Virus record (IMG/VR): IMGVR_UViG_3300021387_001774
Coordinates: 199,687-263,686 of that record
Direction: 5' to 3' (one strand)
DNA length: 64,000 bases
From: a virus
Taxonomy: Duplodnaviria; Caudoviricetes
Position 1 is the stretch's first letter, and each line of letters starts with the position of its first letter. Both the position numbers and the translations under genes were made by a program. The notes under the pieces were generated by a model. It was not told the origin of the DNA. It did not search any database and worked only from the letters and a program-made list of their open reading frames with translations. Shown here piece after piece: positions 3,423-56,256 of this stretch.

Positions 3423-3582
3423 TTTTTTATATATAAAGAACAAATAGATGTATTTCTATTACAGTAGATAGTGTAAAAACTGAAAATTTTTTAGTTATAT
3501 ATTATATGACTGAATGTAGAGATACATCCAAAAACAAAGTAGCCAAAGCGCGCGCTACTAAATATTTCTTCAGGAGGGCCAT

Positions 3583-3747
3583 ATGGCTGACAATGAAAAG
3601 AAGGGATTTGTAAAGTCTGTAACAGACTCAGTTAAGGACGTGGTACCAAAGACCACAGGTGGAAAGGTTGCTGGCGGTGTATTCGCCGGATTGCTTTCTG
3701 TTGGATCCTTCTTTATTGGAAGGATTACAAAGAAATCAAAGAAGTAA
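3583..3747 (+). CDS. 54-aa small membrane protein (not in ORF track)
   Basis: AGGAGGG RBS at 3572; MADNEKKGFVKSVTDSVKDVVPKTTGGKVAGGVFAGLLSVGSFFIGRITKKSKK, a Gly-rich TM segment with a basic tail. Confidence 0.8.
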   Translation: MADNEKKGFVKSVTDSVKDVVPKTTGGKVAGGVFAGLLSVGSFFIGRITKKSKK

Positions 3748-3757
3748 TCTTTCTGGT

Positions 3758-3818
3758 AGCACTATAGTTTAAATGGTAAAACAGTTTATCTATGGGAGTT
3801 CAAATCTCCCTAGTGCTG
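3758..3818 (+). ncRNA. tRNA-like RNA lacking the anticodon arm
   Basis: Acceptor AGCACTA/TAGTGCT, D arm GTTT-AAATGGTA-AAAC, T arm GGGAG-TTCAAAT-CTCCC; only 11 nt between the D and T arms. Confidence 0.8.
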
Positions 3819-3890
3819 TATGAAAATCTTATTAACTAAAGATTTTCATAATTGACTCCTTGGGGACCCGGTAGTAACCGGGTCCCATTT
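3819..3890 (+). ncRNA. candidate antisense sRNA S1 (hairpin - anti-SD toehold - terminator)
   Basis: Hairpin TATGAAAATCTT/AAGATTTTCATA, single-stranded ATTGACTCCTT, terminator GGGACCCGG/CCGGGTCCC; 3840-3861 is complementary to 18754-18776. Confidence 0.65.
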
Positions 3891-3937
3891 TATATTTTTT
3901 TTCTAATTATATATTATATAAGTGGAGGATTTAAACT

Positions 3938-30716: not shown

Positions 30717-30738
30717 ATTCATAACATAGGAGGAAAAT

Positions 30739-31485
30739 ATGGACGAAATGATTATTAGATGGAACAATGGAAAAATCAATTATGATGAATCTATTGGCGG
30801 AACATTCAAGATTGAATTGATTGCCAATACGTTTAAATTTAAACGTATTTCGGGATCAGCAATTCCAACTGATCAGTTGATTGGGTTCCTATGGTTCTGG
30901 CCTGGTCTTGAAAAGGCCAGAGAAAAGGCCAAGAATCTGCGGAGAATAAATCCGTGGAAAGTCAGTCGTAGAGATGGAATGTCGGGTTGTTCCGACTGGT
31001 ATATCCAGTTTTTGGATAGGCTCGGGTTCGTTAGAAAAACCAAGACCATCATCCATTCATCAATGAATGGAAAACAAAATGAGGACATAGATGTCTGGGT
31101 TAAAGACCTCTATGATGTTCTGTGGTGGATGAAGAAGGAAGGATGTTTTCCTTCTTCATTTGAAGGAGGACCTGATCCTGATTGTTTCGCATTTCTTGAT
31201 ATAACCGATGAGGTTATATCAAGACGAAAAGAATTCAACGAAGGTTCACTCGAACCTGAATGTGGGTTTGGATACGAGGAAGCGCTGATCGATGAAGATC
31301 TTCTTTATAAAGATCACTTAAATGACTATTCTAACTACACTCCTACTACTGAGGAGAAGGAGGAAGAGGTTGACGATAATGGGATCCGCCCCGTCGTTCC
31401 CGTCTCTTCTAACTATCGAGGAAAAGATGGGATCCGCCCCGTCGTTCCCGTCTCTTCTAAAGAGGATGAAGACGAATTTGTTTGA
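30739..31485 (+). CDS. hypothetical early cassette protein, acidic C-terminus with duplicated GIRPVVPVSS
   Basis: AGGAGG RBS; Trp-rich. Confidence 0.85.
   Translation: MDEMIIRWNNGKINYDESIGGTFKIELIANTFKFKRISGSAIPTDQLIGFLWFWPGLEKAREKAKNLRRINPWKVSRRDGMSGCSDWYIQFLDRLGFVRKTKTIIHSSMNGKQNEDIDVWVKDLYDVLWWMKKEGCFPSSFEGGPDPDCFAFLDITDEVISRRKEFNEGSLEPECGFGYEEALIDEDLLYKDHLNDYSNYTPTTEEKEEEVDDNGIRPVVPVSSNYRGKDGIRPVVPVSSKEDEDEFV
31379..31460 (+). repeat. 34-bp GC-rich direct repeat x2 (period 48)
   Basis: ATGGGATCCGCCCCGTCGTTCCCGTCTCTTCTAA at 31379 and 31427. Confidence 0.95.
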
Positions 31486-42978: not shown

Positions 42979-43518
42979 ATGAGTATATTAGCTATAGCTA
43001 CAGAGTTTAATCGTTTGGTTAAATCTAAATCTGGACCTATCTCTGATGATTATAACGTTCAATTGAATGTGGAATTATTTAGAGATACTGTGTCCAATAT
43101 TTTTAATAACGAAATGTTAAAACTTAAGATAGAAGTTCTTACAGAATATTCTGTTGATAGTAAAGAGTTTGTTGATTATATTAAAACCAAGATAATCAAT
43201 TTAGATTATTCATTTTTACCATCTGGTATTAATAGAGAAGACACATTATGTATTTGCTCAGCCACATTAAAAAATGACTATAAAATCATTGGTACCTTTG
43301 TTTGTCAAAAAGGTAAATATGTTAAGAAAACTATGGAAAATAGAGCGTTTGATGATGTGCTGGATAAACTAAAAACTTTAGAACGATATTATCTTATGAA
43401 TAAACTGTTTGAAGTAAACGATAAAATAAATAACTTAAGAATGGTCAAAATGGATATTGAAAGAAATTTAATTAATCTAATCAAAAACAATAAAGTTATT
43501 ATTCCAATAGTTTTCTAA
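42979..43518 (+). CDS. hypothetical protein
   Basis: AAGGAG/GGAG RBS. Confidence 0.75.
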   Translation: MSILAIATEFNRLVKSKSGPISDDYNVQLNVELFRDTVSNIFNNEMLKLKIEVLTEYSVDSKEFVDYIKTKIINLDYSFLPSGINREDTLCICSATLKNDYKIIGTFVCQKGKYVKKTMENRAFDDVLDKLKTLERYYLMNKLFEVNDKINNLRMVKMDIERNLINLIKNNKVIIPIVF

Positions 43519-43539
43519 ATTTTATTATAACATATAAAT

Positions 43540-43726
43540 ATACTTGTATGTACACGAATTGAATTTTGAAATTTTTGATTAAAGAAATTTGCCTTTTTGT
43601 AGGAAGTGTTATGAACATAGTATAACCCACTAGTTTATAACGCGGGTCGTATCAATGGGTTAGATACGATAACATAACCTCGTGACTACATATTTCCCTT
43701 AGTCACGAGGTTATTATTTTTTTTTT
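43540..43726 (+). ncRNA. candidate late sRNA S4 (pseudoknot-capable, anti-SD terminator loop)
   Basis: Late promoter at 43529; TCGTATC/GATACGA hairpin whose loop TGGGTTA can pair with upstream TAACCCA; 14-bp terminator stem with loop ACATATTTCCCTT. Confidence 0.55.
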
Positions 43727-43793
43727 GAATCAATGTATGGTTTTCTAGTTTTTACCGCATTGATTAGAAAAATTTAAAACGATATATTTTTAT

Positions 43794-43904
43794 GCCTGCG
43801 TTTTGTCATTTTCGGTAATGGTTGATAGAAATGTTTGAAAGACACCTTATAAAGGTGAATCGAATGAGCAGTCTATCATAGAGGTTCAAAACCTTTCGTG
43901 GGCG
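43794..43904 (+). ncRNA. 111-nt tRNA-like RNA with extended anticodon arm
   Basis: Acceptor GCCTGCG/CGTGGGC, D-like hairpin TCATT/AATGG, TGATAGA/TCTATCA enclosing CACCTT/AAGGTG, T arm AGAGG-TTCAAAA-CCTTT. Confidence 0.65.
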
Positions 43905-44052
43905 TTTGACAATTCAGACTGTCATGTCCCCTTATTGGCGGGTGTTTTTCATGCTTTCCTCCTTATTCATGTTAAACATTAGGGATACGGTGCTCCTGAA
44001 TGGTTACTTGCTCGTACTGATGTACTGCTGTCGTTGACAGCAGTACTTTTTT
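43905..44052 (+). ncRNA. candidate antisense sRNA S5 in the tRNA-like trailer
   Basis: Hairpin TGTTT..CATG/CATG..AAACA presenting loop CTTTCCTCCTTATT; terminator GTACTGCTGTC/GACAGCAGTAC. Confidence 0.6.
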
Positions 44053-44093
44053 ATTACAAAAAACATTACTATATATTTATTTAATATATAAGG

Positions 44094-44546
44094 ATGAAGA
44101 TTATGTTTGGTTATGAATCTTTATATAGACCCATGACTGTAAAACTAAAACCTAAAGATTCATATTCAACTATAAAGAAATTCCATAATAAATATAAAAA
44201 ATATAATAATTTTATATTTTTGACTAAGTCTTATGAAGATCTTTATAATCTTCATCAAGATCGATATTTATTACAATTAACAGATGGAATATCATATGAA
44301 TCGTTTATGTTTAATATTGTAAAAGACAATTATGGGTATTGTATTTATGATAATAAAGAAATAAGACGATTTAGAAATAAAAATAATGCTCTTAAATATA
44401 AAATAAGTAAATCTTTTTTAAAAACATTTGATAAATATACTAATTCTGTAGAAGTTTTTTGTTTCAAATATAATGGTACAGAGCATGATGAATTTGAGTT
44501 TATAAATAATTCTTATTACAATGGAAGGAGAGTAAAGATAAAATGA
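44094..44546 (+). CDS. hypothetical late protein
   Basis: Late promoter at 44062; N-terminal GYE motif. Confidence 0.7.
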   Translation: MKIMFGYESLYRPMTVKLKPKDSYSTIKKFHNKYKKYNNFIFLTKSYEDLYNLHQDRYLLQLTDGISYESFMFNIVKDNYGYCIYDNKEIRRFRNKNNALKYKISKSFLKTFDKYTNSVEVFCFKYNGTEHDEFEFINNSYYNGRRVKIK

Positions 44547-53605: not shown

Positions 53606-53687
53606 ATTATAATTTTTATTAATTATATATTATATTAATGGCTAAGACAATTTGTTTTAGCCATATTAAACCATCAGGAGGCCAATC

Positions 53688-54947
53688 ATGGCAAAGAAAG
53701 AGGTTGCAGAAGCTAAGGCAGCGGAAACATCTGCAAAAAAGGAAAAGGGACCTTCAGCATTCGTTAAATTCGATATGAATCGTCCTAAAACGATCAACGT
53801 CACAAAGGATCGCTTTGTGACAACTGTCTTGTACAAAGAGCTCAACATCATGTTCGAAGCTCAGGTCAAGACAATTGATCTGGCGGGCACAAAGGATGCG
53901 ATCATTAAATCAGTGAATCGTATCATTAAGCTCATGAGGTGTGAAGGAGTACAAAGGTACTATTCAACCGATGAGCTCAAAGCCGACAAGCCTAATTACA
54001 TCATGTCGGTCTTGGTACCATATTTTGGAAGACAAGAATTGGTAATCAAGAACATCATGAATATGCTTAAACAGCTATCTGATGAGGGCGACGTATTATG
54101 TAAAGGTTTCATCAAAAATGTTGCTCTGATCAGTGTAGACACAACTAAAGAGCAGAAAAATGTGTTCATCAAGGGATTTGTTTCCGCATCCCACGAAACG
54201 ATCACTAAGAAAAGGTTTATCGATGGTAATCCTAAGATTAGTAAGATCGAAAAGAACAACATTCGGGGTCAGACATTCCTCTCTAATTCAGTTTGGAATT
54301 CGGACGAATCCTATAAGGATATTGGGAACTATAACAGGTTCTCTATGATCCTTAACAGAATTTCCATCTATGATCCATACGATGGAAAGGTGTTCACAAA
54401 TTCTGTTCCTTTCAAGAAGTCTTTTAAGACTATCGCATATCAGATCGTTAATAACGAATCTGATAATACGTATAAATTGATTAGGAACGAATGTACGATT
54501 TCTCTCTGTCTTAAAGATAGGGAAGATAGTACAAGTGAACGCGTGAAAAAAGATGCGATTGGTGTTTATGTTGAAAACAACGAGACATCTATGAACATCA
54601 ATGATTTCAGGGATATCTTCTATCAGGACAAGAAATTCTTGTTGACAAACAATGAATATCTTAGAATCGATGAGACCGCTGTTGAAATCGATATGTTTAA
54701 GAACGATATGGATTTCATCAACGAAGACATCTTTAAGAGTCTTGAGAAAGAAGATGTTGCTGTAGAAGAAAAACCAAAGACTAAGAAGAAAGAAACAAAA
54801 AAGAAGATGGAGAAGAAAACTGAGGAACCAACATTCAATGAAGTGGGTTCCCTTGCAGATATCGAGGATGTCAATATCGATATTGATAATCAGGTATTAG
54901 CAAGTGATGATCAGACTGAACAGGAACAGCCTGAAACATCAGAATAA
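53688..54947 (+). CDS. hypothetical early protein with K/E-rich and acidic tail
   Basis: AGGAGG RBS; early promoter at 53621; C-ending codons. Confidence 0.85.
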   Translation: MAKKEVAEAKAAETSAKKEKGPSAFVKFDMNRPKTINVTKDRFVTTVLYKELNIMFEAQVKTIDLAGTKDAIIKSVNRIIKLMRCEGVQRYYSTDELKADKPNYIMSVLVPYFGRQELVIKNIMNMLKQLSDEGDVLCKGFIKNVALISVDTTKEQKNVFIKGFVSASHETITKKRFIDGNPKISKIEKNNIRGQTFLSNSVWNSDESYKDIGNYNRFSMILNRISIYDPYDGKVFTNSVPFKKSFKTIAYQIVNNESDNTYKLIRNECTISLCLKDREDSTSERVKKDAIGVYVENNETSMNINDFRDIFYQDKKFLLTNNEYLRIDETAVEIDMFKNDMDFINEDIFKSLEKEDVAVEEKPKTKKKETKKKMEKKTEEPTFNEVGSLADIEDVNIDIDNQVLASDDQTEQEQPETSE

Positions 54948-55077
54948 CTAACTGATGGTTAAAACATGGAGAGGGGGTAAAACCTCTCTCTATGTTTTTT
55001 TTTTATTTTTTTTTTCTATTAGAGAAAGTTTTATTTATATATTATATAAATGATACAATACATATAGGAGGAAAAAT

Positions 55078-56256
55078 ATGAAGTTGTATGATAATGTTAA
55101 GATCAATGTAGCCATGATACCTACATTGAAAAAGAAGGTTTCAAAGTCAAAGATCGATGATACAAAAACGATCAATGACTTTGGGGTGATTAATAATCTC
55201 TTATACGGTAAGATCATTACACACTCTGGTCAGTTCCATGCGGACGAAATCATGTGTGTTGCACTGATCTTGTTAATAAGAGACACCATCAAGTTTAAGC
55301 AAACCGGTGGTGATATGATTCACTCTGATCTTTATAGGTGGAACTATGAAAAGATCAGAGATACGGTTATACGTCGTCCGCAAGGATTGAATCCAGATGA
55401 TCCAAAAGACGTCAAATTGTATAGAGACTGTTTGGTGATTGATATCGAAAATGGTCATTTCGATCATCACCATAAAAACCAGGCAGAAGCACCTCGTATT
55501 GAAAAAGGTGATTCCGAGACAGATAGAGTTGCTTCAATCGGAGTATTGTGGCAATACCTTGGTCATTTGTTTGATATCGAAAGAGATGAAACTGTCTCTA
55601 AAGATGTTCCTGATATAAATGTCTATGATAGAATGTGGGAGAATTTCTTCCTCCCTATTTCTCTACTGGACGTTTATGGACCAAACAAATTTACAAGTCC
55701 AGTCTCTCAGATAATCAGTAACATTAATGGTTATACTGAGTTTGACTTCGACTTTGTGATTCCGGAATCAATGAACCCAGATCCGGAATACATGAAGTTC
55801 ATCGAAGCTGTTCTCTTAGCATATAAGATCCTTAGAGGACAGTTGATCAAGGAACAAAATTTTATTATTGCATTATATGGAATGGGATCTAACCCTTATA
55901 TCAAGATGAACTCTGGTGATGTTCCTAATGTTACAATTGACCAGGTACCAGAGGGAACAAAAGAACCAAAAGTAAATATCGAATCACTTAAATATATTCT
56001 TATTGACGGAGCTGATAAGCCATTAGTTCTGATTAATAAGAATCCAAGTGATCGTGATGGTTCATTTAGAATGATCTGTGTGGATTCAGAGTACGCTCAT
56101 TTTGATAAAAAGCTACTTGATAAACCTGCTAAAGGACAGATCTTCTTACATCCCGCGTTGTTTATGATCACATTTGATTCTTTGGAGAATATTGATGACT
56201 TTATGAGTCATTTGAGTTTCGATGAAGAATCTCATACGATCTGTTATATGCAGTAA
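55078..56256 (+). CDS. MYG1 (UPF0160)-family DHH-like exonuclease
   Basis: ITHSGQFHADE, DIENGHFDHH, FLHPALF. Confidence 0.85.
   Translation: MKLYDNVKINVAMIPTLKKKVSKSKIDDTKTINDFGVINNLLYGKIITHSGQFHADEIMCVALILLIRDTIKFKQTGGDMIHSDLYRWNYEKIRDTVIRRPQGLNPDDPKDVKLYRDCLVIDIENGHFDHHHKNQAEAPRIEKGDSETDRVASIGVLWQYLGHLFDIERDETVSKDVPDINVYDRMWENFFLPISLLDVYGPNKFTSPVSQIISNINGYTEFDFDFVIPESMNPDPEYMKFIEAVLLAYKILRGQLIKEQNFIIALYGMGSNPYIKMNSGDVPNVTIDQVPEGTKEPKVNIESLKYILIDGADKPLVLINKNPSDRDGSFRMICVDSEYAHFDKKLLDKPAKGQIFLHPALFMITFDSLENIDDFMSHLSFDEESHTICYMQ

Follow-up and report, generated by a model that had tools for sequence, protein, structure and literature searches.

The window (the whole 64-kb stretch of DNA that was analysed) was the final part of a 263.7-kb virus record with a GC content of about 30%. 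The record contained multisubunit RNA-polymerase genes, and its closest named relatives, LPJP1, AR9/PBS1 and phiR1-37, were distant, with about 30% identity; the source is an AR9/phiKZ-like jumbo phage. The AR9-type promoter consensus is TATATTAT for early genes and AACA-N6-TA for late genes (PMC5312081), and both types of motif were found to be in use in this genome. A segment of about 8.1 kb, absent from the assembly of this genome (G000) and present in L196:11800-19947, was found to close the genome into a circle; it contained nine genes, among them a paralog of the gene that the end of the window truncates. The small RNA described here, S5, was present inside a gene-free gap of 575 nucleotides (43518 to 44094), and the GC content climbed to 45% across 43850-44050. 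The features of the locus, and the gene starts elsewhere in the window that were compared with it, were as follows.

43529..43540, + strand: AR9-type late promoter motif AACA-N6-TA, which drives S4 and may read through to the tRNA mimic and S5
43776..43791, + strand: conserved 16-nt element directly 5' of the tRNA mimic, a candidate promoter or processing signal
43794..43904, + strand: tRNA mimic with acceptor stem, D-like arm, long middle arm and T arm
43905..44052, + strand: S5 small RNA, the trailer of the mimic, about 150 nt, fold z = -2.7
43923..43936, + strand: variable CCCC motif; it most likely forms a cis helix with 43981-43987, as its 5' strand
43932..43952, - strand: unconserved MKNTRQ mini-ORF that mirrors the anti-RBS
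43942..43979, + strand: hairpin A, with a 5' arm of anti-AUG and U-run (anti-AUG AAA AA) and a CAUG/CAUG closing stem
43954..43967, + strand: exposed anti-SD loop (predicted fold) with a conserved loop core, the main seed
43989..44005, + strand: CUCCUG and its surroundings, a second anti-SD segment and candidate seed B
44022..44052, + strand: intrinsic terminator with an 11-bp stem and a U-tract
30728..30743, + strand: RBS of gene 30739, a plausible class-level target
53669..53690, + strand: RBS of early gene 53688 (419 aa), a candidate seed B target
55066..55083, + strand: RBS of the MYG1-like gene, a plausible class-level target

Homologs were located via neighbouring genes, and S5 was found to be kept in four relatives (L009, L010, L011, and L059). 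L059 came from the same sequencing run as L183 and L194 (SRR32214349), and that these three belong to the same phage is an assumption. The late motif at 43529..43540 was retained in all four relatives. The 16-nt element at 43776..43791 was near-invariant in five homologs and similar in L065, L067, L068, and L008, with a single copy per genome; it may be the true start signal of the S5 unit, and it may represent a third promoter class. In S4 (window 43655-43770), a weak Rfam match to LhrC was found (31 bits against a cutoff of 110), which is probably due to the S4 terminator and its CU-rich loop.

The preliminary description had placed S5 directly behind a tRNA mimic, and this was supported by comparison and by the fold of the mimic (z = -3.1). 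The middle arm of the mimic was devoid of a decoding loop, and the CCA was not encoded. As a true tRNA, 43794-43904 received no ARAGORN call and an Rfam tRNA score of 18.7 bits, below the cutoff of 29, so neither program reported a tRNA with a 7-nt anticodon loop. The middle arm varied in length and sequence and was replaced in relatives, whereas the acceptor stem and the T arm were kept, with a G-C, A-U or G-U nucleotide pair at the first acceptor position. The conserved acceptor stem and T arm, with compensatory change, are as expected of a tRNA-like processing handle. In L059, S5 was present and the mimic was lost, so the mimic is not obligatory.

S5 is very likely a genuine RNA gene. The orientation of the terminator U-tract fixed its strand as +. 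The conserved non-coding unit comprises the mimic, a hairpin whose anti-SD loop is predicted to be exposed, a further anti-SD stretch and a covarying terminator. The Rfam scan over S5 (43905-44052) returned no family, and BLASTN against GenBank phages gave chance matches only. The 16-mer at 43948-43963, which had been described as a hairpin loop displaying both anti-SD and anti-ATG, was located correctly, and the anti-SD (43954-43967) lay in the loop. The anti-AUG, however, was placed by folding in the closing stem, which is formed by the CAUG at 43950-43953 and another CAUG at 43968-43971 (unpaired probability 0-0.4). The predicted cost of opening the anti-SD loop was 1.5 kcal/mol here and 0.3 in L059. 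Read in reverse complement, the motif is simply a strong SD followed by a spacer and ATG. The second anti-SD that had been proposed upstream, the CCCC motif beginning at 43923, was present, but it was variable among near-identical relatives and was predicted to pair in cis with 43981-43987, and for both reasons it is unconvincing as a seed. Seed 2, if any, may be the conserved CUCCUG at 43993-43998, which was retained in L011, L059, and L065/67/68 and was absent from the preliminary description. The idea of a guide RNA with several seeds thus stood as far as a plus-strand non-coding RNA with a conserved anti-SD loop was concerned, but not for CCCC as one of the seeds.

The degree of conservation differed along the unit. 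In L011, 43938-44052 was identical at 114 of 115 positions, with 71/111 for the mimic and 26/39 for the 5' part. In L059, whose neighbour genes share about 80% DNA identity, the loop, the 5' arm, the CUCCUG and the terminator all survived. Four pairs of the L059 terminator were altered on both sides of the stem (compensatory changes), and in its hairpin A the 5' arm with the anti-AUG and the U-run was preserved, whereas the 3' arm was changed. The loop core was preserved in L009, L011, and L059, and in L010 it was found on a different stem, still exposed, behind a tRNA mimic of other sequence. At the syntenic position of the distant relatives G001, G002, and G004, no recognisable S5 was found.

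Related arrangements were observed behind other tRNA-like genes. At syntenic positions, L065 (2823-3250) and L067 (7717-8150) contained a tRNA mimic with a 4-base 'anticodon' call, a tRNA-Asn and a 250-nt trailer, in which an anti-RBS, CUCCUG and a 16S-tail-like motif were followed by a terminator. The anti-RBS of this trailer covaried with the start of an own 395-400-aa gene, and the length of its U-run tracked the A-run of one own gene (U6/A6 vs U5/A5); the cognate pairs reached -19.3/-19.1 and the crossed pairs -17.7/-15.4, in two genomes only. The trailers of a tRNA-Gln (L008:9686-9800) and a tRNA-Ser (G004:206230-206270) also contained an anti-SD with an upstream CAU, and no exact target of the G004 anti-SD was found in its own genome.

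The gene starts were taken from a simple caller (230 starts), and since some of these were wrong, the guides were re-scanned against all SD-bearing ATGs (373 starts). The highest ranks for the full loop and arm were found in the RNA-polymerase beta-subunit gene (C1:165732), followed by C1:126370, and the best loop match in this genome was within the null (p = 0.12). The mean pairing with loop and arm was -14.2 in early-promoter genes and -11.0 in late genes (p = 1e-4). However, early genes outperformed late ones with the plain 16S anti-SD as well (p = 9e-4), and the early bias can thus not be ascribed to S5 specifically. The three best partners of the CUCCUG segment, the PhuZ tubulin gene, 53688, and 3583, were all early; the best single match of this seed B had p = 0.24 and the third-best energy p of about 0.02, and the L059 version formed 10 bp with its own 53688 ortholog. 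The GGCC in the 53688 RBS, conserved at 23-45% protein identity, was considered as conservation of an sRNA target and rejected, as a cis GCCA/UGGC hairpin suffices to explain it. Such a hairpin over the start codon was found in seven genes of four genomes, which weakens the case for seed B.

The strongest pairing was found in L183, where the RBS and AUG of a 123-aa gene paired with S5 43946-43965 over 20 nucleotides with one bulge, at -27.3 against a best of -22.4 across 671 other starts. The two features making this match were each seen in 1 of 626 starts in the clade, which makes a generic match unlikely, although the pairing was picked out post hoc. In the ortholog of this gene here (C1:108757), the RBS had diverged and ranked 130 of 230. 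C1:108757 lies directly upstream of C1:108242, an early gene. A second tRNA mimic, S1 (window 3758-3891; C1:108240), was followed by a 15-nt exact antisense of the RBS and ATG of C1:108242. The 8 kb missing from the assembly contained no good target site for S5.

Our preferred reading, to which we assign a probability of about 0.5, is that S5 is a trans-acting antisense sRNA that represses the early mRNAs of the phage as a class. From structure and conservation, S5 would be made on the + strand together with the tRNA mimic and end at the terminator, and host tRNA-processing nucleases would probably cleave at the mimic and set the 5' end of S5 near 43905. The unpaired UUCCUCCUU loop would nucleate on strong GGAGGAA SD sites. 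By analogy with LhrC, the weak CAUG/CAUG stem would then open, the 5' arm would zip over the AUG and the first codons, and the loading of 30S would be blocked, which would stop initiation. The targets would be a class of messages, mainly the early genes of the phage itself, which have the strongest SDs, and the early-to-late switch would thereby be aided. Gene 30739 and MYG1 would be possible members of this class with nothing special about them, and CUCCUG may act as a second seed for early genes of the UCAGGAG type (PhuZ tubulin, 53688, and 3583). The class-level reading is favoured by the loop, which is conserved and predicted to be exposed although its flanks change, and also by the covarying terminator, the unconserved mini-ORF, the stronger pairing of early-promoter genes, the L183 match, the cognate preference in L065/L067, the exact match of S1 and the like mechanism of LhrC. 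Several findings count against it: no single target in this genome beat the null, the ortholog of the L183 gene has a diverged RBS, the early bias is shared by the 16S anti-SD, L059 keeps S5 without the mimic, the loop of L010 was present without an anti-AUG, and the S4 terminator intervenes between the late motif at 43529 and S5, so that the late timing of S5 is unproven. Comparative evidence points to a real RNA gene, whereas its specific targets are unproven.

The same RNA and mechanism could instead have host mRNAs as the relevant targets, in a shut-off or in the tuning of particular genes. The loop was strongly conserved though this genome has no near-perfect own target, the GC before the AUG was rare in the clade (1/626), and the mirror image of loop and arm was found as an exact gene start in unrelated phage contigs with 34-48% GC, which makes it a typical strong Bacillota-style start. 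The exact 18-mer returned unrelated gene starts only in an IMG/VR search, and the flank pattern gave 112 matches and was too unspecific. On the other side, S1, the sister unit, has an exact match to a phage gene, and the sole near-perfect match found for S5 was also a phage gene, that of L183. Host targets are unlikely in our view, although they keep some weight.

The preliminary description had aimed S5 specifically at gene 30739 and MYG1, with CCCC as the second seed. The pairings themselves were reproduced. The 16-mer paired with 30728-30743 without gaps at 15 of 16 positions, including two G-U, the only 15/16 match among the 230 called starts, and with the MYG1 start (55066-55083) through 9+6 bp separated by a 2x1 internal loop (-17.1 vs -18.1 kcal/mol). 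An early promoter motif was present at both genes, similar RBSs were found in the close relative L197, and by duplex energy of the 16-mer the two genes ranked 3 and 8 of 230. With the full loop and arm, however, they ranked only 12 and 21 of 373, and with the variable, cis-paired CCCC motif 138 and 93. As controls, 73 guides were made by reverse-complementing ordinary RBSs of the GGAGG type taken from four genomes; 11 of them (15%) had a match in this genome with one mismatch or none, which gives p of about 0.15 for the 15/16 match. The pairing is thus a generic RBS match, and an RNA directed specifically at these two genes is improbable.

There is likewise only a small chance that the loop does not serve mRNA pairing at all, and that S5 is a structural RNA or a decoy for a protein or the ribosome that mimics the 16S 3' end. 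The conserved loop core CCUCCUU, which equals the 16S tail, would fit such a decoy, as would the L010 loop without its anti-AUG and the fact that no specific target was significant here. This reading does not agree with the conservation of the anti-AUG and the U-run 5' of the loop in L059, where the 3' arm was altered, nor with the near-perfect RBS and AUG match in L183 and the cognate preference in L065/L067.

Still less probable is a target inside a coding region, namely codons 7-12 of a 325-aa gene (C1:46461), through an exact 18-nt match of 43962-43979. This was the only exact match longer than 12 nucleotides in the genome, and 11 of 3000 shuffles reached 18 (p of about 0.004). The match, at C1:46479, looked decisive but failed the covariation test: in the SRR32214349 homolog of S5 the 5' half of this guide sequence was preserved, but the orthologous gene was without a matching site. 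As the L059/L183 pair lacks the site, the match is probably due to chance; in addition, the site occupies nucleotides 19-36 of the coding region, and a stem takes up half of the guide sequence. The gene (C1:46461-47438) encodes a conserved orphan with a 5' nuclease-like fold, a model pLDDT of 88 and weak likeness to T4 RNase H and T5 flap endonuclease (best E 5e-4); a palindromic AT element lies between it and the divergently oriented DNA polymerase operon.

It is extremely improbable that the motifs serve as genuine RBSs for mini-ORFs on the minus strand (MKNTRQ, the product that was named in advance as refuting the guide RNA, and MTV). Despite a textbook SD and ATG on that strand, neither start, frame nor length was conserved (6 aa here, 16 aa in L011, MKK or 2 aa in L059 with an SD-ATG spacing down to 4 nucleotides, and a missing start codon in L010). 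The U-tract of the terminator is oriented for the + strand, and the minus strand contained no AR9-type early or late promoter motif within 350 nucleotides.

The class-level reading resembles several known systems. In the streptococcal csRNAs, which depend on CiaRH, an anti-SD is followed by an anti-AUG (CAU), and a block of translation initiation is predicted (PMC3091779). S5 also carries an anti-SD with an anti-start codon, a terminator and related copies in the genome. However, in csRNAs the seeds are carried by the unpaired linker that joins two stem-loops, whereas folding placed the anti-AUG of S5 in a hairpin stem, and the csRNAs are chromosomal genes driven by CiaR, whereas S5 is encoded by a phage, behind a tRNA mimic. 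The Rfam csRNA model gave no match to S5 at the gathering score or at E<=10. In LhrC, a C-rich loop binds the SD, and in the final duplex the stem has opened, so that the mRNA is paired with the loop and with the stem's 5' side; RNAIII and RsaE of S. aureus are also UCCC-loop sRNAs (PMC4132741). S5 shares with these RNAs several CU-rich sites in one molecule, a predicted C-rich motif in a hairpin loop (opening cost 0.3-1.5 kcal/mol) and a predicted pairing of first the loop and then the 5' arm. They use UCCC, whereas the seed of S5 is UCCUCCUU in a phage-borne RNA with a tRNA-like handle, and the Rfam LhrC model gave no match over 43905-44052. The likenesses suggest that S5 may work like a csRNA or LhrC, but it was not filed under either because their model and architecture tests failed.

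The mimic and its trailer have other counterparts. Upstream of S5, a non-decoding cloverleaf is placed so that cleavage of the RNase P/Z type would define the end of the neighbouring RNA. MALAT1 mascRNA and RNAs derived from tRNA trailers have such tRNA-like processing handles. The differences are the phage setting, the released product, which for S5 would be an antisense regulator, and L059, in which S5 was found without the mimic. The C4 antisense RNA of P1/P7 is processed from a precursor, is cloverleaf-like, and acts in trans on the own mRNA of the phage. The S5 unit is likewise phage-encoded, has a cloverleaf-like mimic, and would be processed from a precursor and act in trans. C4 works through specific a'/b' loops in the immunity region of temperate phages, whereas S5 has a generic anti-SD loop in a jumbo phage of lytic type, and no Rfam C4 match to S5 was found. 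In the literature, which was covered incompletely, no tRNA-mimic-linked anti-RBS RNA was found described in jumbo phages.

The shut-down of early genes in phiKZ/AR9-like phages is usually ascribed to the two RNA polymerases alone, and in phiKZ no sRNA could be confirmed (PMC8244752). A conserved anti-RBS RNA behind a fake tRNA, if true, would be an additional switch, one that acts on translation and does without any phage protein. We tentatively consider a wider possibility, which we would sooner doubt than believe, that a post-transcriptional timing layer exists across the clade, in which several sRNAs with one or two anti-RBS seeds each would be cut from late transcripts via fake tRNAs. S5 would be its broad member, acting against early messages with strong SDs (RNA-polymerase beta subunit, PhuZ tubulin) and possibly against host messages, and the guides would evolve in step with the RBSs of accessory genes as these are shuffled.

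A few other observations were made at the gene starts. The product of 53688 (window 53688-54947) was found to be an early orphan of 419 aa whose tail is acidic and which evolves fast (68% identity in relatives that otherwise share 97%, as judged from contigs of matching length); a fold search of this protein gave nothing at E<=0.001 and weak ferredoxin-like (PII-type) matches only. A recurrent GCC(A)..(U)GGC hairpin was present just past the SD over the start codon in Met-Ala genes and was conserved at 23% protein identity. It was found in the window at 3570-3590 and 53674-53695, in G001 at 103723 and in G004 at 107412, 132009, 181049, and 248323, and it is possibly a cis-acting tuner of translation. 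In L011 (4730-7900), an array of small accessory genes upstream of gyrB was found to differ between close relatives, and the starts of two of these genes paired with S5 at -20 to -21 kcal/mol.
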